Positions 6,006-50,169 of a stretch of DNA of 64,000 nt are shown in pieces; position 1 is the first letter of the stretch, and each line of letters starts with the position of its first letter. The translations under genes and the position numbers were made by a program. The notes under the pieces are model-generated. The model did not search any database. It was given only the letters and a program-made list of their open reading frames with translations, and was not told where the DNA came from. Source of the stretch: Candidatus Poribacteria bacterium (GTDB taxonomy: Bacteria > Poribacteria > WGA-4E > PCPOR2b). The stretch is from positions 4,064,001-4,128,000 of the forward strand of contig OZ244042.1 in assembly GCA_965215015.1 (NCBI GenBank), read 5' to 3'.

Positions 6006-6009
6006 GAAC

Positions 6010-6043
6010 GAACCGTGAAGTATGTAATCATGCTTCACGGTTC
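6010..6043 (+). other. Intercistronic stem-loop after nosZ
   Basis: GAACCGTGAAG...CTTCACGGTTC perfect 11-bp stem, extendable; no U-tract. Confidence 0.6.
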
Positions 6044-6063
6044 ACATTTCATGTATAGGGGAA

Positions 6064-9507: not shown

Positions 9508-9510
9508 GCC

Positions 9511-10347
9511 ACGACCACTGCAATTTCTAACATCTTTGTTATAATGGGCAAAGAGATACAAGATTCTCGGCGCAACCGATGGTTTCTACTGTTTGCGGTT
9601 GTTTTTACCGGACTAGCACTCGGATTAAGTACGCTCGGATTTTCGGGGCTAGGGACTTTCGGCGTAGCAGGCTTTGGGCGCACTGTTGCCAGCCTCATCA
9701 ATCTTGTTGTACTGATTGCGCCACTGATGGGTTTACTGCTCGGTGCCATCAGTATATCGGGTGAACGGGAACGGGGAAGTTTACTTCCGATTCTAGCGCA
9801 GCCTGTGACGCCAACGGAAGTATTGCTCGGAAAGTTTTTCGGAACAGCATCCGCACTCACTGCAGCAATCCTTTTCGGATTCGGACTGAGCGGATTTGTG
9901 ATTGCGTGGCGAGGCGGCTTCGCCCAACTGGATGACTACCTGATGCTGGTGGGGTTGACCTTGCTGCTCGGTCTTGTCCATCTCAGCATTGGCTTCTGTT
10001 TATCTGTTCTCACATCAAAAAGCGCGACAACATTGAGCCTTGCCCTAATCCTATGGTTGTCAATTGTGTTTCTGAGTGATCTCGGGCTCATTGGGACAGC
10101 AATTGTGTTAAAATTATCTCCGGAAATATTGCTCGCAGCGGTGCTGCTAAATCCGGTACAGGTTTTCAAATTGGCGGCGATTCAGATGATACAGGGGAAC
10201 TTAGAATTACTCGGCACTGCAGGACGCTACGCTGCGGATGTGCTAGGGGATTTCTTGCTGCCGGTACTGATGACATTCCTTATTTTCTGGATGCTTATCC
10301 CACTCGGAATTGCAATTTACATCTTTCCACGAAGGGGTGCACAATGA
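9511..10347 (+). CDS. nosY: NosY ABC permease (start probably ACG 9511; first ATG is at 9544)
   Basis: KE..D.RRNRW, ERERGSL..L.QP, LLGKF, LLNPV; multiple TM segments; position after nosF. Confidence 0.9.
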   Translation, partial: TTTAISNIFVIMGKEIQDSRRNRWFLLFAVVFTGLALGLSTLGFSGLGTFGVAGFGRTVASLINLVVLIAPLMGLLLGAISISGERERGSLLPILAQPVTPTEVLLGKFFGTASALTAAILFGFGLSGFVIAWRGGFAQLDDYLMLVGLTLLLGLVHLSIGFCLSVLTSKSATTLSLALILWLSIVFLSDLGLIGTAIVLKLSPEILLAAVLLNPVQVFKLAAIQMIQGNLELLGTAGRYAADVLGDFLLPVLMTFLIFWMLIPLGIAIYIFPRRGAQ

Positions 10348-10817
10348 AATTGATGAAGATGGAAGGTAGGGAAACACCCGTTACTGGTTTCGTATCTATT
10401 CTACTTATCATCGGATTAATCATGACCGGATGCGGGTTTCAAGATAACGGTGCCCCCCGCATCCGATACGGTGAAGAAACCTGCGATCGATGCCGCATGA
10501 TTATCAGTGAAAAGCGGTTCGCCGCTGCATATCGAACCGAATCCGGTGTATTGCGAAAGTTCGACGATTTGGGTTGTGCAGTGCTCCACCCTAAAGAACA
10601 AAGGGAAACGGTAACGCAATTTTGGGGATATGACTACGAAGAAACCGATTGGTTAGAGGTAAAACAAGCGTTTTTGGTACATAGTTCAGAGCTATTGACC
10701 CCGATGGGGTATGGAATTGTTGCCCTTACAACCGCTGAAAAAGCCACAACACTAGCAAAAAAGGTAAATGGTCAGATAGTGCAGTTTGACCAGCTTTATC
10801 CAATTTTACAACCGTAA
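10344..10817 (+). CDS. nosL: NosL copper chaperone lipoprotein
   Basis: Lipobox IMTGC; CDRCRMII, FDDLGC, TPMGYG. Confidence 0.92.
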   Translation: MKLMKMEGRETPVTGFVSILLIIGLIMTGCGFQDNGAPRIRYGEETCDRCRMIISEKRFAAAYRTESGVLRKFDDLGCAVLHPKEQRETVTQFWGYDYEETDWLEVKQAFLVHSSELLTPMGYGIVALTTAEKATTLAKKVNGQIVQFDQLYPILQP

Positions 10818-29420: not shown

Positions 29421-30956
29421 ATGAATGCAAATGATACGGATCGGCGTCTCAAGTCACGTGGTGTTATACTGCTGCTCTCGGTTTCGATTATTGCAATTTG
29501 TGCGATTGTTTATGAACTGGGAATCGGGAGTTTATCTTCTTACCTTTTGGGCAACAGCATCTATCAATTTTCGATTACAATCGGGCTGTTTATGACAGCG
29601 ATGGGGATTGGATCGTATCTATCGAAATATATCACCCGTCAACTTATCACAGCGTTTATTCGGGTTGAGCTGGTAATTGGATGCATCGGCGGTTTTTCCT
29701 GCCCTATTCTTTTTGCGGCGTACAGCTTCAAGTTCTTCTACGTCCCGATTATGTGGATATTGATTATTCTCATTGGGACGCTGATTGGCTTGGAACTTCC
29801 GCTGCTGACCCGAATCTTTCGCGAATATACAACCCTACGAATTGCCCTAGCCAATGCCCTCACCTTTGATTATCTGGGCGGCTTAATCGGTTCCCTTGCG
29901 TTTCCGCTGCTGTTGTTACCCCTGTTGGGAATTTTTGAGACTTCGCTGGTCATGGGGCTTACTAACATAGCTGTTGTGATTGCCAACTTGATTCTGTTTC
30001 GGCGCGAAATTCAGCACTTCAAGCAGACTGTTGCGGTGGCTGTGTTGGTAACAATGGGCTTGATTGTAGCTCTGGTGATTAGCGATCCGGTGAGCGGCTA
30101 TCTTGAGCAGCGTGTCTACACCGACCGGATCATCCTATCGACGGACTCTAAATATCAACGGATTGTGGTGACACGCTGGAAGGACGATATTCGCCTCTAC
30201 ATCAATGGGCGTTTGCAGTTCAGCGCGCTCGACGAGTATCGTTATCATGAAGCACTGATTCATCCGGCAGCTTCGCTGGTTCCTTCGCGGGCGCGGGTGC
30301 TTGTTCTTGGCGGTGGCGATGGACTTGCGGCGCGCGAAATCTTGAAATATGACGATGTGGACGAAATCACGGTGGTTGACCTTGACCCGATGATAACGGA
30401 ACTTGCATCTACAGACAGCGCACTGCGCCGCCTCAACCAAGACGCACTCCACAATCCAAAGGTGAAGATGATTAATCAGGATGCCCAGCAGTTTCTCCAA
30501 GCAACTCATCAACGCTATAATTTAATTATCATCGACCTCCCGGATCCCGGCGATGAGTCGCTCGTGTCGCTTTATTCAGATACATTCTATCGCCTCGTCA
30601 AACGTCATCTCGCCAAAGATGGGCTCGCGGTGACGCAGAGCAGCTCTCCCTTTTTTGCACAACATGCGTTCTGGTGTATCCATCAGACGATCGAATTCGC
30701 CGGATTGTATACGACCGCTTACCATGTGAATGTGCCGAGTTTCGGTGAATGGGGATTTAATCTTTTTGGTGAATGGCAAATCGATCCACAGAAGATTACG
30801 ATAACGGTGCCAACTCGTTTCCTATCCAACGAATCGCTCCCGCCACTATTCATCTTCGATAAAGATATCGATGAGGTTGACACGCAAATCAATACCCTTT
30901 TGACGCCAATTCTACTTTTCTATCATCGGGAGGGGTGGGAGTCGTGGGGGTTATAG
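29421..30956 (+). CDS. speE: Membrane-bound polyamine aminopropyltransferase (spermidine synthase-like)
   Basis: N-terminal TM domain; DEYRYHE.L.HP, VLVLGGGDG, DLPDP, VPSFGEWGF. Confidence 0.88.
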   Translation: MNANDTDRRLKSRGVILLLSVSIIAICAIVYELGIGSLSSYLLGNSIYQFSITIGLFMTAMGIGSYLSKYITRQLITAFIRVELVIGCIGGFSCPILFAAYSFKFFYVPIMWILIILIGTLIGLELPLLTRIFREYTTLRIALANALTFDYLGGLIGSLAFPLLLLPLLGIFETSLVMGLTNIAVVIANLILFRREIQHFKQTVAVAVLVTMGLIVALVISDPVSGYLEQRVYTDRIILSTDSKYQRIVVTRWKDDIRLYINGRLQFSALDEYRYHEALIHPAASLVPSRARVLVLGGGDGLAAREILKYDDVDEITVVDLDPMITELASTDSALRRLNQDALHNPKVKMINQDAQQFLQATHQRYNLIIIDLPDPGDESLVSLYSDTFYRLVKRHLAKDGLAVTQSSSPFFAQHAFWCIHQTIEFAGLYTTAYHVNVPSFGEWGFNLFGEWQIDPQKITITVPTRFLSNESLPPLFIFDKDIDEVDTQINTLLTPILLFYHREGWESWGL

Positions 30957-31008: not shown

Positions 31009-34000
31009 ATGCAAATTGAAACGTTAATTGACAACATACAAACCAATACGTTGCACAAAACCCTCGAGACCCTGCTGCCGCAAAGTGTCAGTTTAGATAT
31101 TGCGACTGGAACGTTTGAAATTGGCGCGTTTCTATCGCTCGGAGAAACATGGCAACATTTAGATGGAATCCGCCTCCTTATGGGCGACGAGACCACGCGG
31201 CGGACAAAAGAACAGATTGTCAAGGCTTTGCAAGAAATGACCAATAACAGTCTTGAATCCGAAAAAGAAAGGGACGATACCCTCCAAGGGCTTGCCGCTG
31301 TACGGGCGGCGATTCGCTGCGGACAGATTAAGGTTCGTGTTTATGACAGAGCCAAGTTTCACGCGAAACTTAACCTGATGTGTGCTCAACAGCCAAGCCC
31401 TGTCAACTTTGCTACTGTTGGCAGCTCTAACTTTACCCGCCCAGGCCTCACCCAAAATGTCGAATTAAACTGTTTCATCACCGATGCTACGCATATCGCT
31501 AAGCTTCGCGATTGGTACGAGGCACGCTGGACGGAAGCCTCTGAGGTCCAAGCAGAACTCCTGCGTGTCATTGAACGGCATCTCAAGCAGTATAGTCCGT
31601 TTACCGTCTACGCGAAAGCACTTCACGCGCACTTTAAGGGACGTGAAAAACCTGTTGATGAGTGGGAAGAAAACGAATCGGTTATCTATTCGACACTTTC
31701 ACAATACCAAAAGGATGGGTACCATGCTGCGCTCCAAATAGCAGATACCTGGAATGGAGCTCTTATCTGCGATGGTGTCGGAAGTGGAAAAACCTACATC
31801 GGCCTAATGTTACTCGAACGCTGTCTAAGAGATGGCAAGCGTGTTTTGCTCATCACCCCAAAGTCGGTTGCCGAGAGCGTTTGGAACAGCCGGATTGAAC
31901 ACCACTTTCGATTCAAATACGGTCGCCTGCTCCGCGAACACTACGATATCAAACTGCATACCGATTTCAGCCGCCAAGGCGGAATCACCGATGAAGATTA
32001 CCACTATTTTCGACAATACAAGGACGTTATTATCATAGATGAGGCACACCATTTTCGGAATGCCGGTTCCAAGCGCGGTCAATTTTTGATGGAACTCGCT
32101 AAAGAGAAGCAGCTTTACCTCCTCACTGCCACGCCAATCAACAATAGCCTCAACGATATTTCTAATCTGATTAATTACTTTGGGCAGCACCCAAGCCACT
32201 TTGCTCACATCGGTGTTCACGATTTCCGAAAACACTTTCGGGACATTGAAAAACGGTTTGAGGATGAACACGCCGAGATTGCCGAACAGGCTGACGACGA
32301 AGATCTCTTGCGCCAAGACCCTGTTCTCAAACAAATTCTCATCCAGCGCAGCCGGGAATACATCAAACATGCTGAGAAGGAATCTGGGACTGATATCCTC
32401 TTCCCTGAGCGTGTTATCCAACCTACGGTACAATACTCGCTCCGCCAAGTCTATCGCACGCTCTATAGTGAACTCCAAAGTGCTTTTGACCGGGATGATC
32501 CGTTTCTCAATTTGGCAATCTACAACACTACCAGGTATCACAAAAATCCGCAGAGAGGGATACAGCAACGGCAAACGCAATTGATTGGTCTCCTCCGCAC
32601 CCTTGTGCTCAAACGCTTGGAAAGCTCATGGCGAGCCTTTGAAGCCACTATTGAAAACCTACTTCTCAAGATGGCAGTTTGGCTCCAAAGATATGCCCCT
32701 GAACGCTTTGACATGTGGGAGGCTACCAATCCGAGATGGTGGCGTGTTGTTCAGGTACACATCTGCGAAAGACTCCAAGAAGATGGAATCCTACAAGGAC
32801 AATCCCCACAATATACAATCCCACTGGAAAATCTGCAAAACTCCGTTGCGTCCAACTCCTCGGAAGAAGAAGACGATATCGCTTCGGTTGAAAGCGAGGC
32901 GGAATTCATTCCTGAGGATCACGATTTGGATCCTTTGTTTAATGATGTGGTAGACGATATGAATTTCTTAACTGGCCTCCTCAGTCGAATATACCGACGC
33001 TTCTATGCCGATCAGTTGGCTAGCGACCCGGATACGCAGAAGGATGATAAATTTCAACAACTCCTGAATCTCTTAAAAAAGCATCCGGACGAGAAATTAC
33101 TCATTTTTACCGAATTTTGCGACACCGCTCGCTACCTGTATGCCCAACTGCAAAATTCTGGCTTTGAGCAGCTCGCCCAAATTGATAGCCGCCGCAAGGT
33201 GAACCGTGAGGAGATTATTATACGCTTTTCGCCTTGCTACAACTGGAGGGACCCTCAAACGGTTGTGCCAATTCAGACGCTTATCACAACGGATGTCCTC
33301 GCTGAAGGGCTGAACCTGCAAGATGCGTCCATCATCATCAATTATGACCTGCATTGGAATCCTGTCCGGCTGATGCAACGAATCGGTAGACTGGACCGCC
33401 GCCTTGACCCAAAAATCGAGACACGACTCAACCGAATCAACCCGACTGTTCGCGTCTGGAATTTTCTTCCACCCGTGGAGCTCGATGACCTCCTCAAACT
33501 CCGCAGACGGGTTGATGGTAAAATCCTCCGCATCAGTCGAACCCTTGGCATTGAAGGTAAGTTTGTTTCACCGGATGACCCCGAAGAGACCATCCGTCTC
33601 TTTAACGAACAATATGATGGTACTGAAAGCATTGAAGAGCTGATGAACCTTGAACGTCAGCGAATCGCTGAATCACAACCCGATTTATGGGGTCAACTGC
33701 CAAACCTACCGCTGCGCCTCTTTTCGGGCAAACGCTCAAATGACGAACCACCACCTTTCCGTAATCGCGAAAACGAACTGATTCTACTTGAGCGCACCGG
33801 TGCCACCGGAATTTTCTGTTGTTATCAGATGCCAAACGATGAGGTTCAATGGTATTTCTATAACGCTGAAACTGATGAAGTGCTTGACAACATTGAGCAA
33901 ATCTGGCCTGAAATCCGATGCGGTGTGAAAACACCGCGCCATATTGAGGGTGGACAGGGTGGGCTCGTAGCCGCACAGAAAAAGGTTGAACGCCATATCC

Positions 34001-34083
34001 GCCGCACCTATCTTCGACGCATACAGGCCTCTATTGGAGCAAAGCCCAAACTTCTTGCGTGGATGGAAATTTCCTCAGGTTAA
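31009..34083 (+). CDS. PLD-nuclease + SNF2-like SF2 helicase fusion
   Basis: FHAK...GSSNFT (PLD); DGVGSGKT, IIIDEAH, LTATP, EGLNLQ, WNP.RL.QRIGR.DR. Confidence 0.9.
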   Translation: MQIETLIDNIQTNTLHKTLETLLPQSVSLDIATGTFEIGAFLSLGETWQHLDGIRLLMGDETTRRTKEQIVKALQEMTNNSLESEKERDDTLQGLAAVRAAIRCGQIKVRVYDRAKFHAKLNLMCAQQPSPVNFATVGSSNFTRPGLTQNVELNCFITDATHIAKLRDWYEARWTEASEVQAELLRVIERHLKQYSPFTVYAKALHAHFKGREKPVDEWEENESVIYSTLSQYQKDGYHAALQIADTWNGALICDGVGSGKTYIGLMLLERCLRDGKRVLLITPKSVAESVWNSRIEHHFRFKYGRLLREHYDIKLHTDFSRQGGITDEDYHYFRQYKDVIIIDEAHHFRNAGSKRGQFLMELAKEKQLYLLTATPINNSLNDISNLINYFGQHPSHFAHIGVHDFRKHFRDIEKRFEDEHAEIAEQADDEDLLRQDPVLKQILIQRSREYIKHAEKESGTDILFPERVIQPTVQYSLRQVYRTLYSELQSAFDRDDPFLNLAIYNTTRYHKNPQRGIQQRQTQLIGLLRTLVLKRLESSWRAFEATIENLLLKMAVWLQRYAPERFDMWEATNPRWWRVVQVHICERLQEDGILQGQSPQYTIPLENLQNSVASNSSEEEDDIASVESEAEFIPEDHDLDPLFNDVVDDMNFLTGLLSRIYRRFYADQLASDPDTQKDDKFQQLLNLLKKHPDEKLLIFTEFCDTARYLYAQLQNSGFEQLAQIDSRRKVNREEIIIRFSPCYNWRDPQTVVPIQTLITTDVLAEGLNLQDASIIINYDLHWNPVRLMQRIGRLDRRLDPKIETRLNRINPTVRVWNFLPPVELDDLLKLRRRVDGKILRISRTLGIEGKFVSPDDPEETIRLFNEQYDGTESIEELMNLERQRIAESQPDLWGQLPNLPLRLFSGKRSNDEPPPFRNRENELILLERTGATGIFCCYQMPNDEVQWYFYNAETDEVLDNIEQIWPEIRCGVKTPRHIEGGQGGLVAAQKKVERHIRRTYLRRIQASIGAKPKLLAWMEISSG

Positions 34084-34086
34084 TAA

Positions 34087-34800
34087 TTGTCTGAATCAGG
34101 ATTTTCAGGATGAAAGGATTGGCAGGATGATTTCATTCAGGTTGACAGTCTGTTCATGAGTGCCATAGAAGTATTTGCGGTTAGGATTTTAATGGCATTT
34201 GGGTGTTAGCCAAGCCGTATGCCGTAGCGGTTGTCTGAATCAGGATTTTCAGGATGAAAGGATTGGCAGGATGATTTCATTTAGACTGGCAGTCTATTCA
34301 TGCACACCCCAGAAGTATTTGCGGTTAGGATTTTAACGGCATTTGGGTGTTAGCCAAGCCGTATGCCGTAGCGGTTGTCTGAATCAGGATTTTCAGGATG
34401 AAAGGATTGGCAGGATGATTTCATTCGGACTGACAGTCTGTTCATGAGTGCCCCAGAAGTATTTGCGGTTAGGATTTTAATGGCATTTGGGTGTTAGCCA
34501 AGCCGTATGCCGTAGCGGTTGTCTGAATCAGGATTTTCAGGAGGAAAGGGTTGGGGGGATGATTTCATTTAGACTGGCAGTCTATTCATGCACACCCCAG
34601 AAGTATTTGGGGATAGGATTTTAATGGCAGTTGGGTGTTAGCCAAGTCGTATGCCGTAGCGGTTGTCTGAATCAGGATTTTCAGGATGAAAGGATTGGCA
34701 GGATGATTTTATTTAGACTGGCAGTCTATTCATGAGTGCCCTACAAGTATTTGAGGTTAGGAGTTTGATGGCAGTTGGGTGTTAGCCAAGCCCTATACCG
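34087..34800 (+). repeat. Non-coding tandem array, 5 x 144 bp
   Basis: Units start at 34087, 34231, 34375, 34519 and 34663 with TTGTCTGAATCAGGATTTTCAGG. Confidence 0.97.
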
Positions 34801-34839
34801 TTTGATTCTATCCGAAAGAAAAAAAATGGAGATAATTTA

Positions 34840-37800
34840 GTGCCCCAAATAACGCCTGAGAATATTCACAGTATCTATAACTTTGACGCATTGTTAAACT
34901 TTTTGCGAGAAAAGCTTGACTGGCCCATCCCTGAAGGGGTTGAACTTGAAGATGTTGCCTTTCCTTGGTCCCCCGAAGATCTCGATCTGGATGAACCGAC
35001 TGAGGGGCGAATCATTGACTGTTGGCAGCTGCCGCCTTTCTCAACTGACCAGCTTGAACTCGGATTTCATGAGGGGGGCCAACCGTGGGGCATCTTTTTT
35101 GTCCAATTTAAGAGTGAATCCATCTATCGGACTGCCCTAAGACGTGTTCTACGTGGGCTTGTTGAGAGACGGGACCGAGATCCAAACCTTCCCGTTTGGA
35201 ATCATGATCAACTCCTCTTTATCTGTACCACAGATGACTTTCAACGCTTCGCTTTTGCACACTTCGCCTCCACCGAAAACTGGCACCGCGCTGTGCTCTC
35301 CATCTTTTCGTGGGAACAGGGAGATACCCACCTCCGCACCCTCTGCGAATATAACCTCCCCGCCCTCACGTTTCCAACAGGAGGATTCTCAAATAATCAG
35401 GACTGGCTCCGAGAATGGCAAGCAGCATTTGACGTGGAAGCAGTTACCGAAAAATTCTTTGCCGAATACCAACGTATCTTTGAACAGGTAGAAGCTGCAA
35501 TCGAGGGTATTCCAGCAAGCGAAAAAGCGCAACGTCGGTTGTATATGCAACGACTCTTCAACCGGCTGATGTTCCTTCGATTTGTTGAAAAGAAGAAGTG
35601 GCTTACCTACAACAGCGATTACAACTACCTACGCGCTCTTTTCAACGCTGCGAACGAAACTGACGAAAACTTTCTCAATGACCGGCTCTATTGGGCCTTC
35701 TTTAATGGACTCGGCACCGCAGCAGATTTACCTCACGACTGCGCTGAAATTGAGGAGCGGCGAGGTAAAGTTCCTTTTCTCAACGGTGGGCTCTTTGAGA
35801 TGCAAGAATATGATGAACGCCATGCGGTGCATATCCCTAACACTGAGTTTGGCAAAATTTTGGACCTTTTTGAGCGATACAACTTTACGGTAACCGAATC
35901 CACTCCACTTGATATTGAGGTTGCTGTTGATCCCGAGATGCTTGGAAAGGTGTTTGAAGAACTTGTGACAGCCAGACACGATACCGGCAGCTACTACACA
36001 CCGCGCCCGGTTGTCTCCTTTATGTGCCGAGAGAGTTTGAAAATCTGCCTTCGTAATAAAACCGATGAAACACCGGCATGTCTTCAAGCATTTGTCGATG
36101 CCGATGATGCGACGGCAATTAGGAATCCAGAGCAGGTATTACAGGTGCTTCAAACGCTCCGCATTTGCGACCCAGCGTGTGGGAGTGGTGCCTATCTGCT
36201 CGGAATGATGAGCGAACTGCTTCGCTTGCGCGATGCCCTGTTCCAAAGCAATCAGATTGATGCCAAAACGACCTATCAACGCAAACTGGACATCATTCAG
36301 GAAAACCTCTACGGCGTGGACAACGATGAATTCGCTGTCAATAATGCCATGCTCCGCTTGTGGCTTAGCCTCGCAGTTGATTATGAGGGTGATATACCAG
36401 AACCGTTGCCTAACTTAGACTATAAAGTTACTGTTGGAGATAGCGTAACGGGGCCTGCGCCTGAACCTTCCGATGGCCAACTCCGGTCCGAAGACAGTTT
36501 AATTCAACAGATTCAGGAACATAAAGCCAACTATCTGGTTACCCACACTGATTTTGAGAAACAGAGACTTCGAGAGAGGATTACCGAACTCAAAAGAGAT
36601 CTTCAAGGGTGGAGTGTAAGCCAGGATGAGTTCGTCTGGCAGGTCGAATTTTCAGAAGTCTTCCAGGAAGGTGGATTTGATATTATCGTCGGCAACCCCC
36701 CTTATGTGCGACATGAGCTTATCAGACCGATTAAACCGATTTTAGAACAGCGATTTTCGGGTTTTTTTGTAAGCACTGCGGACCTCTATGTCTACTTCTA
36801 TAAACGAGGAGCGGAATTGCTCCGCGGGGGCGGGATTCTCACTTATATCTCCTCCAATAAATTTTTGCGAGCAGGGTACGGTCGGAAACTCCGGCAGCTC
36901 TTGACGAATAAAATGTGCCTTCAAAAACTGCTCGATTTTGGGAGTGTGCCAGTTTTTGGGGCGAGTGTGGATACCTGTATTGTCCTTGTTGAAAACGCTA
37001 TTCCGGGGGGAGAGACGTTTGCGGCGGCAATCTTTCGTGACAAGGCCGATGTCCCTCGCCTCTCTACAGCGTTTCAAGAGCATGCGATTTCTATGTACGC
37101 CCGCGACTTGTCCCCAGATGGATGGACTTTGACATCACCGGAGGCACTGAAACTGCTCGAAAAACTCCAAGGAACCGGAACACCGCTGGGAGAATACATG
37201 GATGGTGATTTCTATATCGGCGTGGTAACAGGCTGCAATGAGGCCTTTATAATTGATGCCTTAACGCGTCAGCAGCTGATTGCTGAGGATCCCAATAGTG
37301 GTGAACTCATAAAATCCTTGTTTCGTGGACGCAATCTTCAAAAATGGAGAACAGAAGCAACAGACGAGTATCTTATAACAATAGCGAGCAGCGCGAACGT
37401 GGAATGGCCTTGGTCAAATGCAGCAAACTATTTAGAAGCGGAACAACTTTTCGCCCAAACTTATCCGGCAATTTATCAACATTTGAACGCTTATCGGGAA
37501 TCGTTGATTTGCCGTATCGACCAAGGCACATTTTATTGGGAACTCCGCTCCTGTTTTTATTATACCAAGTTTGAAAAACCGAAGATTGTCTACCGAGACA
37601 TGGCAAAGTTCTTCTCAGCAAGCTATGATACTAAGGGAACATTCAGTTTAAACACAACATTCTTCATACCCACCGGCGATCTCTCTTTACTCGCTATTCT
37701 GAATAGTCAGCTCTTTGATTGGTATGCCCGACACAAGTTTCAGACCCTTAACGACCCGTGGGCGGGAGGTGGGCTGCGTTTCTTTGTGCAGTATATGCGG

Positions 37801-38004
37801 CGTGTTCCGATAGCAGGCCGTACTGCGGTGCAAAAAGCAGCTTTGGCGCGTTTGGTTGAACGGATACTCATAGACCCCAAAGGTGATAAGGTACGTGACT
37901 TTGAGAGGGAAATAGATGCACAGGTCTATCAACTCTACGACTTAACAGATGAAGAGATTGCGTTGATTGAGCGGACATACGAGGAGGCAGGGATGCAGCG
38001 GTGA
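34840..38004 (+). CDS. Type IIG-like / Eco57I-family N6-adenine DNA methyltransferase with C-terminal specificity domain
   Basis: FLNGGLF, DPEMLGKVFE, GSYYTPR, DPACGSGAY (motif I), GNPPYV (motif IV), TaqI-C-like tail. Confidence 0.9.
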   Translation: MPQITPENIHSIYNFDALLNFLREKLDWPIPEGVELEDVAFPWSPEDLDLDEPTEGRIIDCWQLPPFSTDQLELGFHEGGQPWGIFFVQFKSESIYRTALRRVLRGLVERRDRDPNLPVWNHDQLLFICTTDDFQRFAFAHFASTENWHRAVLSIFSWEQGDTHLRTLCEYNLPALTFPTGGFSNNQDWLREWQAAFDVEAVTEKFFAEYQRIFEQVEAAIEGIPASEKAQRRLYMQRLFNRLMFLRFVEKKKWLTYNSDYNYLRALFNAANETDENFLNDRLYWAFFNGLGTAADLPHDCAEIEERRGKVPFLNGGLFEMQEYDERHAVHIPNTEFGKILDLFERYNFTVTESTPLDIEVAVDPEMLGKVFEELVTARHDTGSYYTPRPVVSFMCRESLKICLRNKTDETPACLQAFVDADDATAIRNPEQVLQVLQTLRICDPACGSGAYLLGMMSELLRLRDALFQSNQIDAKTTYQRKLDIIQENLYGVDNDEFAVNNAMLRLWLSLAVDYEGDIPEPLPNLDYKVTVGDSVTGPAPEPSDGQLRSEDSLIQQIQEHKANYLVTHTDFEKQRLRERITELKRDLQGWSVSQDEFVWQVEFSEVFQEGGFDIIVGNPPYVRHELIRPIKPILEQRFSGFFVSTADLYVYFYKRGAELLRGGGILTYISSNKFLRAGYGRKLRQLLTNKMCLQKLLDFGSVPVFGASVDTCIVLVENAIPGGETFAAAIFRDKADVPRLSTAFQEHAISMYARDLSPDGWTLTSPEALKLLEKLQGTGTPLGEYMDGDFYIGVVTGCNEAFIIDALTRQQLIAEDPNSGELIKSLFRGRNLQKWRTEATDEYLITIASSANVEWPWSNAANYLEAEQLFAQTYPAIYQHLNAYRESLICRIDQGTFYWELRSCFYYTKFEKPKIVYRDMAKFFSASYDTKGTFSLNTTFFIPTGDLSLLAILNSQLFDWYARHKFQTLNDPWAGGGLRFFVQYMRRVPIAGRTAVQKAALARLVERILIDPKGDKVRDFEREIDAQVYQLYDLTDEEIALIERTYEEAGMQR

Positions 38005-38151
38005 GGCAGAGGGTTAAATTCGTTTTCCAGAAGTAAATCCGATGAGATTTTCACGGGCACTGCGAACTGATAATGAGGGAGACAAATTCTATCTAAGATT
38101 TGTTATTTCTGAACAAGGATTATATTTTTCCGTAAGTGGTTTAGCTAATCC

Positions 38152-38524
38152 GTCTGAATCAGGATTTTCAGGATGAAAGGATTGGCAGGAAGATTTCATT
38201 CGGACTGATAGTCTATTCATGAGTGCCGCACAAGTATTTGAGGGTAGGCGTTTAATGGCAGTTGGGTGTTAGCCAAGCCCTATGCCGTTTAATTCTATCC
38301 GAAAGAAAAAAAATGGAGATAATTCAGTGCCCCAAATAACGCCTGAGAATATTCACAGCATCTATAACTTTGACGCATTGTTAAACTTTTTGCGAGAAAA
38401 GCTTGACTGGCCAATCCCTGAAGGGGTTGAACTTGAAGCAGAGGGTTAAATTCGTTTTCCAGAAGTAAATCCGATGAGATTTTCACGGGCACTGCGAACT
38501 GATAATTAGGGAGGCAAATTCTAT
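38152..38524 (+). pseudogene. Ghost copy of the methyltransferase unit with a ~3.05-kb internal deletion
   Basis: 38152-38438 copies 34665-34951 (one array unit plus 37 codons) and is joined to 38439-38524, a copy of 38007-38092. Confidence 0.92.
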
Positions 38525-38530
38525 TCCATC

Positions 38531-40219
38531 ATGCGTCCAATTCCCCGCCGTCTTTTCCTACAATACTGCCTCTTTGGGTTAGGGATGCCGTTTTTGCCGC
38601 GGTGCTCATCCCCTTCTCCTAAGCCATTGACCTTCAACATCCCGGGTGAGATTATCGGTGAACCGAGTGGGATTGGCCATCTTGTGCGGCAGCCACTCGC
38701 GGAGACGCTCATCCCTCCGTCGACCGGGAGGCGACACACCGCACTCATTGTCGGCGGTGGAGTCTCAGGGGTCAGTGCAGGTTGGAAATTGGCGAGATCC
38801 GGTGTTACCGATTTTGTCATTCTTGATTTGGGGGACCAATTGGGCGGCACCTCAATTGCCGGTCGCGTCGAAGCAGATGGTATCGCATTCCCCTGGGGAG
38901 CGCACTACATCAACACACCGCCGATGGAGGCGGATTGTATCCTTGAGGTGCTCGAAGAGCTTCAGGTTGTCGTGGACTACACCCCCCTCGGATGGCCCAT
39001 TATGAATCCGGATTACGTTCTGCGCGAACCGGCGGAACGTCTGTTTATTGAGAACCGTTGGGTGGAAAATCTCGACCCCTTTTCCACCGGGTCCCAGGGG
39101 GATCAGCAGGCGTTCCAAGAATTTCAGACCGATATGCTTCGGTGGACGTTCTACAGAGGCGCGGATCAACGCCGTGCGTTTACGCTGCCGTTAGAATATA
39201 GCAGTGCGGATCCGGAGGTGCGTGCGTTGGATAAGATTACAATGCGGGAATACATGCGACAAAAGGGATGGGATTCAGAGCGATTGGATTGGTTTGTCAA
39301 CTACGGCTGCCGCGATGATTACGCCTGCCCGATTGATGAAGTTTCGGCGTGGGCGGGCATCCACTACTACGCGTGTCGTTATTACGCAGGTCAACTACAG
39401 GATCGCTTTCCAGTCCATACAGTCACATGGCCCGAAGGCAATGCCTTTCTGATAAACGGTATGGCACAGCGTTTTTCGTCAACCAACGTCCGCATGAATG
39501 CACTCGTCCTTTCCATTCACCAGCAGGGGGATGAGGTGCTCGTAACCTTCATGGACACCCAAACCCGTCAATTCACGACGTTGCGCGGACAAACAGCAAT
39601 CTACGCCGGACAGAAGCATATCGCCAACCATATCATACCCAATCTCCCCAATGATCAGAAGACTGCTTTCCAGGGGTGCCAATATACCCCGTGGCTGACA
39701 GGGAGCATTCACCTCAAACGTCTACCTCAGACAAGACGGAACGCGATTGCTTGGGATAATGTCATGTATGAGAGCGAAGGGTTAGGCTATATCGCCGCCG
39801 AGCATCAGACGCGGGATGCAGCAGATAGTGGAGGCCCATCGGTTCTTATCTACTACCTTCCCTTTGCCCGCGAACCGGATATTAAGCGGAGAGAACTGCT
39901 TGACAAGGGACACGATTTCTGGGTGAACGAAATCATGAAAGATCTCTGGCAGATGCACCCCGGTATCGAAAAGGACATCACCCGAATCGATCTCTATAAA
40001 TGGGGGCACGCGATGATCAGGCCGACGCCCAATTTTATTTGGCATCCGAATCGGGCATTACGTGGGCGTCCATTTGGCAGGATTTTCTTCGCAAATGCGG
40101 ATGTGACCGGGCTGCCGCTTTTTGAGGAGGCGTGTTATTCTGGCATCCATGCAGCGCAGGGCGCAATGAACGCACTACAGATTCCTTATGCGGATTCAAT
40201 TCGAGGAAGTATTCACTGA
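38531..40219 (+). CDS. FAD-dependent amine-oxidase-like oxidoreductase, probable Tat substrate
   Basis: PRRLFL signal; IVGGGVSG, PWGAHY, CRDDY, SAWAGIHY, WGHAM..P, LFEEA. Confidence 0.85.
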   Translation: MRPIPRRLFLQYCLFGLGMPFLPRCSSPSPKPLTFNIPGEIIGEPSGIGHLVRQPLAETLIPPSTGRRHTALIVGGGVSGVSAGWKLARSGVTDFVILDLGDQLGGTSIAGRVEADGIAFPWGAHYINTPPMEADCILEVLEELQVVVDYTPLGWPIMNPDYVLREPAERLFIENRWVENLDPFSTGSQGDQQAFQEFQTDMLRWTFYRGADQRRAFTLPLEYSSADPEVRALDKITMREYMRQKGWDSERLDWFVNYGCRDDYACPIDEVSAWAGIHYYACRYYAGQLQDRFPVHTVTWPEGNAFLINGMAQRFSSTNVRMNALVLSIHQQGDEVLVTFMDTQTRQFTTLRGQTAIYAGQKHIANHIIPNLPNDQKTAFQGCQYTPWLTGSIHLKRLPQTRRNAIAWDNVMYESEGLGYIAAEHQTRDAADSGGPSVLIYYLPFAREPDIKRRELLDKGHDFWVNEIMKDLWQMHPGIEKDITRIDLYKWGHAMIRPTPNFIWHPNRALRGRPFGRIFFANADVTGLPLFEEACYSGIHAAQGAMNALQIPYADSIRGSIH

Positions 40220-40338: not shown

Positions 40339-40719
40339 ATGCAGGCACTAGGACGACAAATTCTGATTGAATTTTACGATTGCCAGAGTGAGGTACTTAC
40401 CGATAGAAATCAAATCCGTCAATATATGCTTGAAGCAGCCCGCCACGCCGGAGCGACGGTGATATCGGATACATTCCATCATTTCAAGCCGGATGGCATC
40501 AGCGGTCTGGTCGTCATTGCGGAATCTCATATATCCATTCACACTTGGCCCGAGCACCGTTACGCTGCGGTCGATGTATTTACCTGCGGCAATTCCGTTG
40601 ATCCTTGGGGCGTTCCGCGCTATCTCCAAGAAAAATTACAATCTGAAAATGTCTCAAGCATGGAGATAAAGCGCGGACTGTTCCAAATTCCGGTACAGTA
40701 CAAACCTACTAATGGGTGA
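40339..40719 (+). CDS. speD: S-adenosylmethionine decarboxylase proenzyme
   Basis: IAESHISIHTWPE (pyruvoyl cleavage site) and DVFTCG. Confidence 0.95.
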   Translation: MQALGRQILIEFYDCQSEVLTDRNQIRQYMLEAARHAGATVISDTFHHFKPDGISGLVVIAESHISIHTWPEHRYAAVDVFTCGNSVDPWGVPRYLQEKLQSENVSSMEIKRGLFQIPVQYKPTNG

Positions 40720-44462: not shown

Positions 44463-45278
44463 ATGCATCCACTCGTAAATCTCAAAGTACAGGAGGGGGC
44501 TGTTGCCGTTCATTGGTTTGAGCAGAGCACCTTTGCGGTGAAGGATTCGCACGGAACAGTTGTACAGATTGACCCGTACTTTCCACACGATCGTCCCGCT
44601 GACAGATTTATCCACACCGAACCGCCGTTAGACGAATCTCAACTCCCGACGGACTATGTGCTATTGACACACAACCACGGCGACCACACTTGGCCTGAAT
44701 CAATTAACCGCATCCACAAAACTTCACCGGAGGTAAGGTGTGTCGGACCGGAAGAGAGTATCGCACAGGTGCTATCAGATACGGATGTTGACACAGCTCA
44801 CACGACGACAATCCATGCCGGTGAGTCAGCATCACTCGGAACTCTCACGGTTGACGCTGTCTATGCGAAACCGCCTAATGGACACCCCGCCGCAAATATA
44901 GCACCGCCCGATGTAACCCATCTCGGCTACGTCCTTAAAACGGATGGGGTAACACTCTACTTTTCCGGCGATCCCATCAATACCTTTGCCGACCACGATG
45001 CGCTGGTGAACGCTGTCGCTGCATACAATCCGGATATTGGATTCTTGACCAATCACCCGACGGAAGGTGAATTTCCGTTCTATCATGGCTGTGTAAAGAT
45101 GGCGCAACGGATTGGGCTTAAGCACGCTGTTCCCTCGCACCGATCCTGCTTTGTCACGCGGGATTATAATCCGGATGAGTGGGCGGCGCAATTTCCTGCT
45201 GATGGACCTCAGCCGCTGATCATTCCCCGAAATTCGCACGTTATTTATCCGAGTCTGAATCAGGATACTCAGGATTGA
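44463..45278 (+). CDS. MBL-fold metallo-hydrolase (UlaG-like)
   Basis: IDPY, THNHGDH, YFSGD, PSH. Confidence 0.85.
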   Translation: MHPLVNLKVQEGAVAVHWFEQSTFAVKDSHGTVVQIDPYFPHDRPADRFIHTEPPLDESQLPTDYVLLTHNHGDHTWPESINRIHKTSPEVRCVGPEESIAQVLSDTDVDTAHTTTIHAGESASLGTLTVDAVYAKPPNGHPAANIAPPDVTHLGYVLKTDGVTLYFSGDPINTFADHDALVNAVAAYNPDIGFLTNHPTEGEFPFYHGCVKMAQRIGLKHAVPSHRSCFVTRDYNPDEWAAQFPADGPQPLIIPRNSHVIYPSLNQDTQD

Positions 45279-46246
45279 GGGATTGACAGGATAAAAACCG
45301 TGAATCGGATAATATCGGGATTCAAACCAACTGGTTCGTCAAGTTGATTGAGCTGATACCCTCTTGTCTGAATCAGGATACTCAGGATGGAAGGATTGAC
45401 AGGATAAAAACCGTCATCGGATAATATCGGGATTCAAATCAACTAGTTCGTCAAGTTGATTGAACTGATACCTCCTTGTCTGAATCGGGATACTCAGGAT
45501 GGAAGGATTGACAGGATAAAAACCGTCATCGGATAATATCGGGATTCAAATCAACTGGTTCGTCAAGTTGATTGAGCTGATACCCTCTTGTCTGAATCAG
45601 GATACTCAGGATGGAAGGATTGACAGGATAAAAACCGTGAATCGGATAATATCGGGATTCAAACCAACTGGTTCGTCAAGTTGATTGAACTGATACCTCC
45701 TTGTCTGAATCGGGATACTCAGGATTGAGGGATTTACAGGATAAAAACCGTGAATCGGATAATATCGGGATTCAAACCAACTGGTTCGTCAAGTTGATTG
45801 AACTGATACCTCCTTGTCTGAATCAGGATACTCAGGATGGAAGGATTGACAGGATAAAAACCGTGAAGTTGACTATGATACTGGTAGAGGGGCATGGGGG
45901 GCTATGCCTACTACTACCCCCTTGTCTGAATCAGGATACTCAGGATTGAGGGATTGACAGGATAACAGCCGTGAAGTTGACTATGATACTGAATAGGGGG
46001 GGCATGGGGTTGCTAGGCCTACTACTACCCCCTTGTCTGAATCAGGATACTCAGGATGGAAGGATTGACAGGATAAAAACCGTGAAGTTGACTATGATAC
46101 TGGTAGAGGGGCATGGGGTTGCTAGGCCTACTACTACCCCCTTGTCTGAATCAGGATACTCAGGATGGAAGGATTTGCAGGATAAAAACCGTGAAGTTGA
46201 CTATGACACTGATAGGGGGGCATAGGGGTTGCTATGCCTACTACTA
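45253..46246 (+). repeat. Tandem array of 9 units (5 type A of 112-113 bp, then 4 type B of ~108-111 bp) with a constant ~50-bp core
   Basis: GTCTGAATC at 45253, 45366, 45478, 45590, 45703, 45816, 45924, 46035 and 46144. Confidence 0.97.
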
Positions 46247-48144: not shown

Positions 48145-50169
48145 ATGCGTTATATCGGCAGTAAATTAAATCTGTTATCCCAGATTGAAGGGGTCGTTGA
48201 CAATTTGGGGGTTAGAAAGGGGGTATTTTGCGACCTGTTCGCGGGCACAGTGTGTGTTGCGGCACACTTTAAACGCAAAGGATTTCAGATTATCTCTAAC
48301 GATTTTCTCGAACTCTCCTACGCCTTTCAGCGAGCATTGATTGCTAACAATGCGGAACCCGAATTTGCGAGTATTGTCGAAACACTCGGTGATGTACAAG
48401 ATGATAGCCTGTTTACTAACCTTTCACCATGCCATAAGGTGGTTGCCTGGTTGAACTGTCTCCCCGGCAAGAGAGGGTTTATCTTTCACAACTACTGTCC
48501 ATCAGGGAATAACGAATATGGTCGGCAATACCTATCCGATAGCAACGGACAGAAGATTGACGCAATCCGCCAACAGATTCAACAGTGGCGCGATGCAGGT
48601 GAGATCACGGAGAACGAATTTTATCTGCTGCTGCTACCGTTGTTGGAGGCGACATCGAAGGTCGCCAATATTTCTGGCACTTACGGCGCATATCTCAAAC
48701 ACTGGGATCCTCGAACTTATAAAGATTTGCCCATGGTTCCAGCTGAGATTATTCGGTCAGATGTGCGACATCAAGTGTTTCGGGGTGATGCAAATCAATT
48801 GATTGAGGCTATTCGGTGCGATGTCCTCTATCTTGATCCGCCGTACAACACCCGTCAATATATTACCAATTATCACCTGTTGGAGACCATTGCGCGGTAT
48901 GATGCCCCCCCTCTTCATGGGAAAACGGGGCTGCGCAACTACGAAGACGGGGAAAAATCGGCGTACTGCTCCAAATCAGATTGTTATCGCGCGTTCCAAG
49001 ACCTAATTGAAAAAGCAAACGCACGATATATTCTGGTGAGTTACAACAACGAAGGCATTTTGTCGCGTGATGAGGTGATGTCTATCCTTTCGCTTCGAGG
49101 TGAACCCCATTGCAATTCCCCCATTGATTACCGGCGGTTCAAAAGCAACTCTCATGGCGATCAACCCGCTTTAGATAACCGTGTACAGGAGTTGCTGTTT
49201 CACCTTGAAGTGACAACACCTCCAAAACAATCTCGGCAAAAAAATAAAGAGGAAGAACCAAAACGACGCTACGACCCACGGAACAAACTCAATGATCTCT
49301 CTGGGAGTGAGTGGACATATTTCCTCAACTCGGTTGAACTGGAAGGGACAGAACACAATCTAGGAAGACTCAACGATCTGTCTGAGGAGGAGTGGGCAAT
49401 TGCATCGGCCCCTGTTTGGGATACGCACTATCCGACCAATGGTCCCCAATCTGATGCCCATCACATTCGGAAGCAGCACCCGTCGCCAAAACCACCGGCA
49501 TTGATGAAACGCCTAATCGAGTTTTTTACGAAAGAGGGAGGGCGTGTTCTGGACCCGTTTGTTGGGGTCGGTGGAACGCTGTTAGCGTGTTCAATGGCTG
49601 GTAGGCATGGTGTTGGAATCGATCTATCGCAGGGCTATCGTGAGATTTACCACCAAGCCTGCGCTCAACTTAGCTTAGAACCGCAGCCTTTCCTGTGTGG
49701 AGATGCGAGGGATTTAGAGAATCTCTTAGGAGAAGTTGTGCCGTTCGATCTGCTCTTGACCGACCCACCTTATGGTGATATGCTCTCTCGGAAGCGTAGC
49801 GGTGACCGAAAAAAGAGAACAGGAGATGATAGTCCAACGCCCTTTACAGACAGTCCTGATGATCTGGGGAATATGCCGCCATCTCAGTTTTACAAATCGC
49901 TTAAGACGGTGATTGTTCACGCGATGCAGCACCTCAAACCGAAAGGGTACGTTGTCATTTTCTGCAAAGATCTCCAACCGACCGAAAAGTACCATAACAT
50001 GATTCACGCCGATGTTGTCAAAACCCTTACGGATGTCGAAAATTTGCGGTTTCGAGGCTACAAAATTTGGTATGATAAATCGCTGAAACTTTACCCGTTC
50101 GGTTATCCGTATGCATACGTTTCCAATCAACTCCATCAATTCAGTCTGATTTTCCGAAAGGAGGATTGA
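48145..50169 (+). CDS. Two-domain DNA methyltransferase (D12/FokI-like N6A domain + N4C/N6A domain)
   Basis: Domain 1: RYIGSK, DLFAGT, YLDPPYN. Domain 2: HPSPKP, LDPFVGVG, TDPPY. Confidence 0.85.
   Translation: MRYIGSKLNLLSQIEGVVDNLGVRKGVFCDLFAGTVCVAAHFKRKGFQIISNDFLELSYAFQRALIANNAEPEFASIVETLGDVQDDSLFTNLSPCHKVVAWLNCLPGKRGFIFHNYCPSGNNEYGRQYLSDSNGQKIDAIRQQIQQWRDAGEITENEFYLLLLPLLEATSKVANISGTYGAYLKHWDPRTYKDLPMVPAEIIRSDVRHQVFRGDANQLIEAIRCDVLYLDPPYNTRQYITNYHLLETIARYDAPPLHGKTGLRNYEDGEKSAYCSKSDCYRAFQDLIEKANARYILVSYNNEGILSRDEVMSILSLRGEPHCNSPIDYRRFKSNSHGDQPALDNRVQELLFHLEVTTPPKQSRQKNKEEEPKRRYDPRNKLNDLSGSEWTYFLNSVELEGTEHNLGRLNDLSEEEWAIASAPVWDTHYPTNGPQSDAHHIRKQHPSPKPPALMKRLIEFFTKEGGRVLDPFVGVGGTLLACSMAGRHGVGIDLSQGYREIYHQACAQLSLEPQPFLCGDARDLENLLGEVVPFDLLLTDPPYGDMLSRKRSGDRKKRTGDDSPTPFTDSPDDLGNMPPSQFYKSLKTVIVHAMQHLKPKGYVVIFCKDLQPTEKYHNMIHADVVKTLTDVENLRFRGYKIWYDKSLKLYPFGYPYAYVSNQLHQFSLIFRKED

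Follow-up and report, generated by a model that had tools for sequence, protein, structure and literature searches.

We analyzed a stretch of 64,000 nucleotides (nt) from a Candidatus Poribacteria bacterium (GenBank assembly GCA_965215015.1, contig OZ244042.1, positions 4,064,001 to 4,128,000), referred to here as the window and numbered from its first letter, in which a gene for a helicase carrying a PLD nuclease and a gene for a DNA methyltransferase are separated by a tandem array of 144-nt units (array 1). The explanation that we favor, to which we assign a probability of about 0.7, has three layers: the two genes form a restriction pair, the array between them is a passenger, and the 43-nt sequence at the head of each unit (the head) belongs to a family of repeats which we infer to be those of a selfish element. 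Array 1 is comparable to a cluster of repetitive extragenic palindromic (REP) sequences or of bacterial interspersed mosaic elements (BIMEs) and is not a working part of the defense system, because homologous gene pairs carry no array at any of seven loci, the same head precedes murB elsewhere in the window and heads lie beside unrelated genes at no fewer than 129 loci. The head family, with its link to the GxxExxY nucleases, is the part of the finding that is worth pursuing.

The first gene of the pair (31009..34083, plus strand) encodes a protein of 1024 amino acids (aa) in which Pfam recognized the domains PLDc_2, SNF2-rel_dom and Helicase_C. Its translation shows the HxK...GSxN motif of PLD (HKD-type) nucleases together with Walker A, DEAH and motif VI, and the SNF2 motor is intact; domain and motif thus agree with the PLD nuclease that a first-pass annotation, made by a model from the letters of this DNA, had assigned to the helicase. 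The best PADLOC model was 'HKD+Snf2' C3a139 (1.2e-60, residues 31-878), and Pfam recognized no target-recognition domain in this protein. The second gene (34840..38004, plus strand), which starts with a GTG codon at 34840, encodes a gamma-class N6-adenine DNA methyltransferase of 1054 aa with a TaqI_C specificity domain. Its Pfam matches were Eco57I (1.4e-38), TaqI_C and MmeI_Mtase, with N6_Mtase also found, motif I and motif IV (NPPY) are visible in the translation, and the best PADLOC model, REase_MTase_IIG (1e-111), covers residues 426-1045 only. The N-terminal ~200 aa belong to no family, with no Pfam match at E<=10 for residues 1-200, and the protein has QxK at the position where Type IIG nucleases carry (D/E)xK. 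For the same region the ESM Atlas gave MmeI_N as a look-alike with a sub-threshold score of 0.87, which is a lead only, and the single-sequence AlphaFold model was of low confidence (pLDDT 41.6). The two open reading frames (ORFs) lie 756 nt apart and specify two separate polypeptides. By analogy with the families to which they belong, the two genes probably constitute a restriction-modification-type defense module in which the methyltransferase would mark host DNA at an asymmetric site and supply the sequence recognition, and the helicase-nuclease would translocate on unmodified DNA and then cut it.

Based on tblastn searches against 72,556 plasmids, 81 records showed homology to the helicase and 71 to the methyltransferase, and the best matches of both proteins coincided in five of them (Calothrix AP018291, Nostoc CP040273, AP025733, CP117770 and Deinococcus CP086385). 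Identity to the plasmid homologues was 28% for the helicase and 33-38% for the methyltransferase. We inspected seven homologous loci, namely the five shared records together with Planktothrix LR882948 and Halalkalicoccus CP144124, whose helicase loci show an Eco57I-type or annotated methyltransferase gene directly upstream. All seven present the same order on one strand, a methyltransferase gene followed by zero to three small or variable genes and the PLD+SNF2 helicase gene, tightly packed with spacers of 3-76 nt. Since homologues of both proteins share five records and are co-located in seven loci, the association of helicase and methyltransferase is conserved, although at no more than 28-38% identity. 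No head (nhmmer, E<=1) or long-period tandem repeat was detected at any of the seven loci, a negative answer to the search for intergenic arrays at homologous pairs that the first-pass annotation had proposed. The two-component restriction system suggested there can accordingly be kept for the two genes, given their domains, motifs and conserved association, but not for the array as a part of it.

Array 1 (34087..34806, plus strand) comprises five 144-nt units, as established with Tandem Repeats Finder (34087-34801, period 144, 5.0 copies, 90% matches, score 1171), a repeat search and the alignment of the units. Only 3 nt separate the helicase stop, which ends at 34083, from the first unit, and the array ends ~35 nt before the methyltransferase GTG; Tandem Repeats Finder and the ORF coordinates therefore support the placement between the two genes described in the first-pass annotation. 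The heads are at 34087, 34231, 34375, 34519 (degenerate) and 34663, each followed by a tail of ~100 nt that is confined to this locus. When these units and a sixth one found beyond the methyltransferase gene were aligned, the mean column identity was 93%. Besides the 144-nt register there is a better one of 288 nt, as subtypes alternate along the array (units 1 and 3 versus units 2 and 4) and double units are 93-95% alike, a pattern that points to unequal exchange of double units as the way in which the array grew. Units 1-4 each run straight into the next head, with no gene-start remnant and no copy of the segment A described below between them. No ORF of at least 60 aa exists inside the array on either strand. 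Since no terminator-like site was found within array 1 (nor within the second array of the window), its co-transcription with the gene pair is probable. Searches for known RNAs were negative: Rfam 15 gave no match at the gathering score in the window and only chance-level matches at E<=5 in 34000-34900, a tRNA and transfer-messenger RNA scan found none, and the folds of single units, with z from -2.3 to +1.6, were weak or no better than those of shuffles. A CRISPR array was rejected as well, as the tails are identical within the array and the window contains no Cas domains. Units 1-4 also have, on the minus strand (34186-34645), one weak promoter-like site each (TTGGCT, 16 nt, TAAAAT; 9/12 matches), which are oriented back toward the helicase 3' end.

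The region downstream of the methyltransferase gene preserves traces of a second copy, all on the plus strand. A 91-nt segment 'A' begins at the methyltransferase stop codon (38002..38092) and is followed by the sixth 144-nt unit (38150..38291, head at 38150), which in the unit alignment is closest to unit 5. Next comes what we call the ghost (38292..38449), identified by repeat comparison, in which a ribosome-binding site precedes the initial 112 nt of the methyltransferase ORF (GTG at 38327) and which can be read as an ORF of 40 codons. The second copy of segment 'A' (38434..38524), 97% identical to the first, lies directly upstream of an amine oxidase start at 38531. As a whole, positions 34665-34951, which run from unit 5 through the ribosome-binding site to nt 112 of the ORF, are repeated at 38152-38438 with 94% identity, and this 287-nt duplicate corroborates the sixth unit that the first-pass annotation had placed before a ghost methyltransferase. 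The ghost is an internal 3-kb deletion derivative of a second methyltransferase gene copy, because in the three-way view of the junction the gene start is joined, at a GA(A/G)G microhomology, to the sequence found just past the stop of the full gene. The sixth unit and the ghost record two events, the duplication of unit, methyltransferase gene and 91 nt and then the internal loss of 3 kb at the microhomology. The direct repeats of 287 nt and 91 nt that now flank the intact gene could delete it by recombination.

A second array with the same head, overlooked in the first-pass annotation, was found 11 kb from the first. Array 2 (45251..46246, plus strand; Tandem Repeats Finder and head profile) lies between a gene of the metallo-beta-lactamase fold, whose ORF terminates inside the first head, and murB, which starts at 46268. 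It has nine heads with two other tail types, arranged as five units of ~113 nt (5.5 x 113 in Tandem Repeats Finder, which placed the array at 45253-46246) and then four of ~109 nt. Arrays 1 and 2 have in common only the first ~43 nt of the unit, that is, the head, formed by TTGTCTGAAT and four (C)AGGAT(T) words, with distances of 9, 8 and 9 nt from one GGAT start to the next. In a search with a 38-nt pattern of the head, the window gave 13 matches and each of 100 shuffles none; with a head profile, 15 copies were found, all on the plus strand and all within the two arrays or the ghost region. Since array 2 precedes murB, the head is not tied to the defense pair. None of the three tail types had any other match in the window or in the loci fetched from other genomes. 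With tails that are local and a head that alone is found elsewhere, we read array 1 as a local amplification, in which one 43-nt extragenic head and ~100 nt of local flank would have been amplified in tandem with registers of 144 and 288 nt. In units 2 and 3 of array 2, the fourth head word gives TTGACA, placed 18 nt before GATAAT; these two plus-strand sites are promoter-like (11/12 matches) and lie on the murB strand.

A scan of 185,579 species genomes, with the four spaced words as the only query, yielded at least 131 stretches corresponding to at least 129 loci, 80 of them with 8-kb flanks; the counts that follow refer to the loci and matches listed, and individual loci carry our own L numbers. 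Sorted by record title into ten phylum-level groups, the loci belonged to Cyanobacteriota (51, mainly Nostocales), Bacteroidota (34), Chloroflexota (19) and Poribacteria (13), with smaller groups formed by Thiotrichales-type Pseudomonadota (4), Desulfobacterota, Latescibacterota and Aminicenantes (2 each) and Chlorobiota and Balneolaceae (1 each). Although the ten bases before the pattern, TTGTCTGAAT, were absent from the query, each of their positions was conserved at 61-98% among 170 unique exact instances, and the information content of the same instances dropped to background directly outside the 43-nt head. The head consensus was nearly equal among the six larger groups. Apart from the heads, the window and the fetched loci have nothing in common, the longest alignment being of 62 nt. 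The first-pass annotation had held that the array would be a passenger if homologous pairs lacked arrays and the 144-bp unit occurred at many unrelated loci. This is essentially what was observed, except that only the 43-nt head, and not the whole 144-nt unit, occurs elsewhere.

Among 276 unique heads, 113 were solo, 103 had a convergent partner, 73 a tandem neighbor and 10 a divergent one. Convergent pairs have their TTGTC ends outward and lie 71-389 nt apart, and a 199-bp convergent form is recurrent in Dolichospermum. Of 124 other loci, 8 had tandem runs of at least three heads; the periods range from 80 to 162 nt, and one of these runs is a Dehalococcoidia array of alternating 145- and 162-nt units. 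Two variants deserve description. In Nostocales copies (L037, L057, L062, L068, L069, L074, L102 and L117) the head is split after TTGTCTGA by an insert of ~24 nt which is nearly constant between copies, as if a smaller repeat were nested in the head. In Parabeggiatoa (L047:1560-1820) the inverted repeat reaches ~30 nt past both TTGTC ends of a convergent pair, and these heads seem to sit inside an inverted-repeat element of larger size. We found no description of the head repeat in the literature searched, although its Nostocales form may already have been published as an Anabaena miniature inverted-repeat transposable element, or MITE (Fewer et al. 2011; Wolk et al. 2010).

Concerning the genes around the heads, crude ORF calls placed 57 heads in gaps between convergent genes, 11 between divergent genes and 64 between co-directional genes (15 of these 64 from the window). 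When the distance to the stop codon was measured for ORFs of at least 100 codons on the same strand, the TTGTC end fell between -8 and +8 nt in 20 of 159 cases compared to 2 of 159 in a mirrored control, and in 21 of 127 when only the first head of each run was taken. Examples in which this end lies 0-8 nt past the stop are L008:5071, L054:7957 and 8042, L062:10914 and position 34087 of the window, and in some loci a TGA within the head itself serves as the stop codon. The 166 nearest ORFs were a mixed group that included aminoacyl-tRNA synthetases, MurJ, DnaB, NdhF, nitrogenase and phycobilisome proteins, among others. Six of them were restriction-modification-like, too few for a claim of enrichment, one was a TnpB fragment, and no DDE or Y1 (Y1_Tnp) transposase was recognized among the 166. 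In Dolichospermum (L049:390-4424), a head lies 26 nt past the stop of a gene for an Eco57I-type methyltransferase of 1335 aa. A long head-bounded element with a transposase was sought in L065 and L075, where only ordinary genes were found.

One type of gene stood out beside the heads. All-against-all clustering of 824 crude ORFs from the flanked loci produced a sole non-generic cluster, which crosses phyla and lies directly at heads in L045 (Saprospiraceae), L056 (Mucilaginibacter) and L062 (Dolichospermum). Its members correspond to PDDEXK_3 (E ~1e-35) and to TIGR04256 'GxxExxY protein' (123-135 bits, cut-off 35), and the D...ExK nuclease motif is visible in their sequences. With the three proteins as tblastn queries, four further genes were found in L044, L110 (Thiotrichaceae), L111 and L120. 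All seven genes are situated at 80 nt or less from a head, although the DNA within 300 nt of one amounts to only 9.9% of the 1.07 Mb of sequence analyzed, and their products are 61-79% identical across Bacteroidota, Cyanobacteriota and Thiotrichaceae. L056 shows the most compact arrangement, a 621-bp unit made of a head, 78 nt, a 128-aa gene, 70 nt and an inverted head; the stop of the GxxExxY gene is followed within a few nt by a head in L062, L044 and L111.

We also looked from the side of the gene, at six plasmid homologues of the L056 protein (36-55% identity). The head profile matched at none of the six, yet most of the genes have short repeats around them. GGGATT/GGATT words spaced ~9 nt occur on either side of the Persicobacter gene (55%). 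In Bernardetia and Bacteroides, the flanks of the gene hold inverted runs of a CACAGAG-type word, again with ~9-nt spacing (26/32 and 28/35 matches), in the Fusobacteria case 52-nt direct repeats enclose the gene (43/52 matches), and a convergent pair of runs, with three CGCGGAT words in each, lies after the Gemmatirosa gene. The flank repeats were clearly significant for three of the six genes, with 26, 28 and 43 matches compared to a maximum of 17 in a null set of 30 mismatched flank pairs. At L138:1380-2010, L140:420-1115 and L142:915-1075, where such runs flank or follow distant plasmid GxxExxY genes, there are three words spaced ~9 nt, of the CACAGAG or CGCGGAT type and often inverted; the architecture is kept and the word varies. 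As far as sequence comparison can tell, these arrangements suggest that GxxExxY nucleases recognize short periodic repeats flanking their own genes. To our knowledge, the GxxExxY (PDDEXK_3) nucleases are a large family without an assigned function. In the accessible part of the survey of Steczkiewicz et al. (2012, PMC3424549), PDDEXK_3 is listed with the function 'Unknown' and with 'multiple transfers', and the part of PMC8934634 available to us mentions GxxExxY only in passing; no description of a partnership with repeats was found in the literature searched.

According to the model that we propose for the head family, the head would serve a selfish element as its terminal or recognition repeat, and in the autonomous form of this element the gene for a GxxExxY (PDDEXK_3) nuclease of the PD-(D/E)XK type and ~125 aa would lie between heads. 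We would count solo heads, convergent pairs and tandem runs as its non-autonomous derivatives, analogous to REPs and their doublet forms (REPINs) with the gene of a REP-associated tyrosine transposase (RAYT). The nuclease would recognize the repeats that flank its own gene, and changes of the protein would go along with changes of the repeat word, which is (C)AGGAT here and different around distant members of the family. Repeats without the gene would spread, come to rest at stop codons and cause nearby genes to be amplified in tandem, duplicated and deleted, and array 1 and the ghost methyltransferase could be footprints of such activity. The broader proposition that GxxExxY nucleases, together with repeats of three or four words spaced ~9 nt, are an undescribed class of selfish elements moving between phyla is put forward tentatively, and we would give it roughly one chance in three.

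The most direct rival to a passenger array is an array that works in the restriction system, either because its units head exchangeable specificity cassettes or because it acts as a methylation-sensing regulator, both of them roles that the first-pass annotation had envisaged. The array does occupy all of the space between the two genes, the ghost methyltransferase start has a sixth unit before it, and the 287-nt and 91-nt direct repeats around the methyltransferase gene make its loss or exchange by recombination possible. Yet this proposal is very improbable in our judgment. A component or sensor of the system is hard to reconcile with seven homologous loci that lack arrays and heads, with a nine-unit array of the same head before murB, and with heads at 129 or more loci of about ten groups where 160 of 166 neighbors are non-restriction genes. 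The cassette version, with empty units as scars or landing sites, is disfavored because units 1-4 abut head to tail and end directly at the next head, with no gene-start or segment A remnant between them, and the alternating subtypes indicate plain 288-nt duplication. A different division of the locus would make the two genes independent neighbors, a stand-alone Type IV-like PLD-helicase such as SauUSI and a Type IIG enzyme with its own nuclease. According to the available part of the report on the MANTIS system (bioRxiv 10.64898/2026.09.23.753747), its effector MtsD is structurally similar to the stand-alone SauUSI, and the MmeI_N look-alike at the methyltransferase N-terminus, weak as it is, would agree with a Type IIG enzyme. 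Independence is nevertheless unlikely, since homologues of both genes occur in one operon in the five shared plasmid records, the first 200 aa of the methyltransferase match no family and carry QxK where a Type IIG nuclease has (D/E)xK, and the helicase shows no target-recognition domain of its own.

A third rival concerns the head itself, which might be a host-beneficial RNA or DNA element at the 3' ends of genes (an mRNA stabilizer, a terminator or a protein-binding platform) and not the mobile DNA of a nuclease gene; array 1 would then tune the ratio of helicase to methyltransferase. We consider this improbable, although several features of the heads speak for it: they abut same-strand stops ten times as often as in the mirrored control (20 against 2 of 159), they prefer convergent (57) and co-directional (64) gaps over divergent ones (11), a distribution that matches the one given for REPs in the available text of PMC3733652, their convergent pairs can form long imperfect hairpins, and each head offers four GGA-containing words, a sponge for CsrA being a conceivable function of so many of them. 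On the other hand, no Rfam family matched, the unit folds are weak or shuffle-like, and the GxxExxY genes between heads would be left unexplained. Two further observations bear both on this rival and on our own explanation, since they count against each: the two arms of convergent pairs differ at linker positions, which are not complementary, and in co-directional contexts outside the window heads show no strand preference (24 sense and 25 antisense).

Returning to the three-layer explanation, several other results weigh against it. The gene order of the pair, with the helicase first, is opposite to that of all seven homologous loci, which moreover are distant relatives only (28-38% identity). 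The proximity of GxxExxY genes to heads has a nominal P of ~1e-7, but this value is post hoc, as the queries came from the same loci. No GxxExxY gene was found in the window by tblastn with the cluster proteins, and none of the seven loci that bear one comes from Chloroflexota or Poribacteria. Two of the six plasmid GxxExxY genes were borderline in the flank comparison and another had no flank-to-flank repeat. There is no sign of target-site duplication either, as none of 44 convergent pairs shares 4 nt or more and one shares 3 nt, where 2.3 were expected. Finally, the status of passenger is compatible with an effect on expression that array 1 could have acquired.

The defense pair looks like an insertion within a polyamine gene cluster, because it is flanked on one side by the gene for a polyamine aminopropyltransferase, or spermidine synthase (29421..30956, plus strand; NCBIfam NF002956, 616 bits with a cut-off of 472; Pfam Spermine_synth), and on the other by genes for a flavin amine oxidase (38531-40219, plus strand; Pfam Amino_oxidase) and an S-adenosylmethionine decarboxylase (40339-40719, plus strand; Pfam AdoMet_dc). 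Farther away, an ORF of 674 aa (48145-50169) fuses a D12-class (Dam-like) N6-adenine methyltransferase domain with an N6_N4_Mtase domain; it is surrounded by three genes for PhyH-family dioxygenases, and no nuclease gene is evident beside it. The region 4011-10817 holds a nitrous-oxide reductase cluster with NosZ (with nos_propeller), an ORF of 1147 aa in which NosD is fused to an ABC ATPase, an ABC-2 permease and NosL.

Our reading removes the tempting idea of a non-coding array as the third component of a restriction system, and turns the locus into a minimal relative of MANTIS and Type ISP systems that was disturbed by a repeat. It is unusual that a non-coding sequence of 43 nt should be almost unchanged in Cyanobacteriota, Bacteroidota, Chloroflexota, Poribacteria, Thiotrichales and Desulfobacterota, and equally so that it should be tied to a widespread nuclease family. 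If the proposal is true, the GxxExxY proteins would gain a role, a second partnership of the REP/RAYT kind would exist on a different nuclease fold, and many intergenic arrays of large bacterial genomes would be explained. The heads set flush against stop codons are an oddity that can be tested.

Compared with known repeats, the heads resemble REPs, REPINs and BIMEs in being short, extragenic, mostly downstream of ORFs in convergent or co-directional gaps and often in inverted pairs (REP definition as given in the available part of PMC3733652), in forming tandem clusters that include flanking DNA as BIMEs do, and in flanking a small nuclease gene. They differ from REPs and REPINs in that a head consists of direct words spaced 8-9 nt, with no palindrome or stem-loop and no GTAG/CGTC tag, and in that its sequence is conserved across phyla; unlike a RAYT, the gene associated with it encodes a PD-(D/E)XK GxxExxY protein and not a Y1 (HUH) transposase. 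The convergent 43-nt ends that enclose 71-390 bp, their many copies and their adjacency to genes recall bacterial MITEs (Correia, ERIC, Nezha and the Anabaena MITEs of 127-204 bp). The terminal inverted arrangement of classical MITEs is also present, since 103 of 276 heads are convergent compared to 10 divergent, but target-site duplications and a recognized transposase were not found, and the sole recurrent enclosed gene is that of the GxxExxY protein.

As for the gene pair, the first-pass annotation had stated that it does not match full DISARM or BREX gene sets, and we agree: by gene content the pair is not DISARM, BREX or MANTIS, because NCBIfam scores are far below the cut-offs and the partner domains are absent. 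DrmD of DISARM scored 132.8 bits with a cut-off of 610, and neither DUF1998 nor any other Drm partner occurs in the window; the PglX models of BREX scored 53-58 bits with cut-offs of 400-900, and no PglZ or BrxC was found in the 37 ORFs of the window that were scanned. Type ISP (LlaGI/LlaBIII-like) and Type IIG enzymes combine an Eco57I-type methyltransferase and a TaqI_C-type specificity domain with a nuclease and an ATP-driven motor. The methyltransferase described here resembles Type IIG enzymes in joining methyltransferase and specificity domain in one chain (Eco57I and TaqI_C). The pair differs from Type ISP enzymes in that the functions are split over two polypeptides instead of residing in a single one, and from both types in that the nuclease is a PLD and not an Mrr or PD-(D/E)xK domain, none of which is recognizable by Pfam in the methyltransferase. 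The plasmid operon, with which we group PADLOC C3a139 'HKD+Snf2' and whose order is methyltransferase (in some cases preceded by a helix-turn-helix gene), zero to three small genes and PLD+SNF2 helicase, encodes homologues of both proteins; here the order is reversed, intervening small genes and a helix-turn-helix gene are missing, and the array is present only here. The closest characterized system is MANTIS, also known as Gao_RL (BREX-related type 2). In the part of its description that is available (bioRxiv 10.64898/2026.09.23.753747), the N6-adenine methyltransferase MtsC recognizes and hemimethylates asymmetric sites, the dimeric MtsD, with PLD and superfamily 2 (SF2) helicase domains, is the effector, and a DUF499 ATPase (MtsA) and a DUF3870 protein (MtsB) are also required. 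Our locus differs in being a two-gene module with the helicase first and in having no MtsA (DUF499 AAA+) or MtsB (DUF3870) among the 37 ORFs of the window scanned with Pfam. It shares with MANTIS, as far as that description goes, an MtsC-type N6-adenine methyltransferase and an MtsD-type PLD (HKD) nuclease with an SF2 helicase, for which the same logic would be expected. Judged by its sequence, the pair is a split restriction-modification module of the MANTIS or Type ISP kind, a new member of a kind already known.

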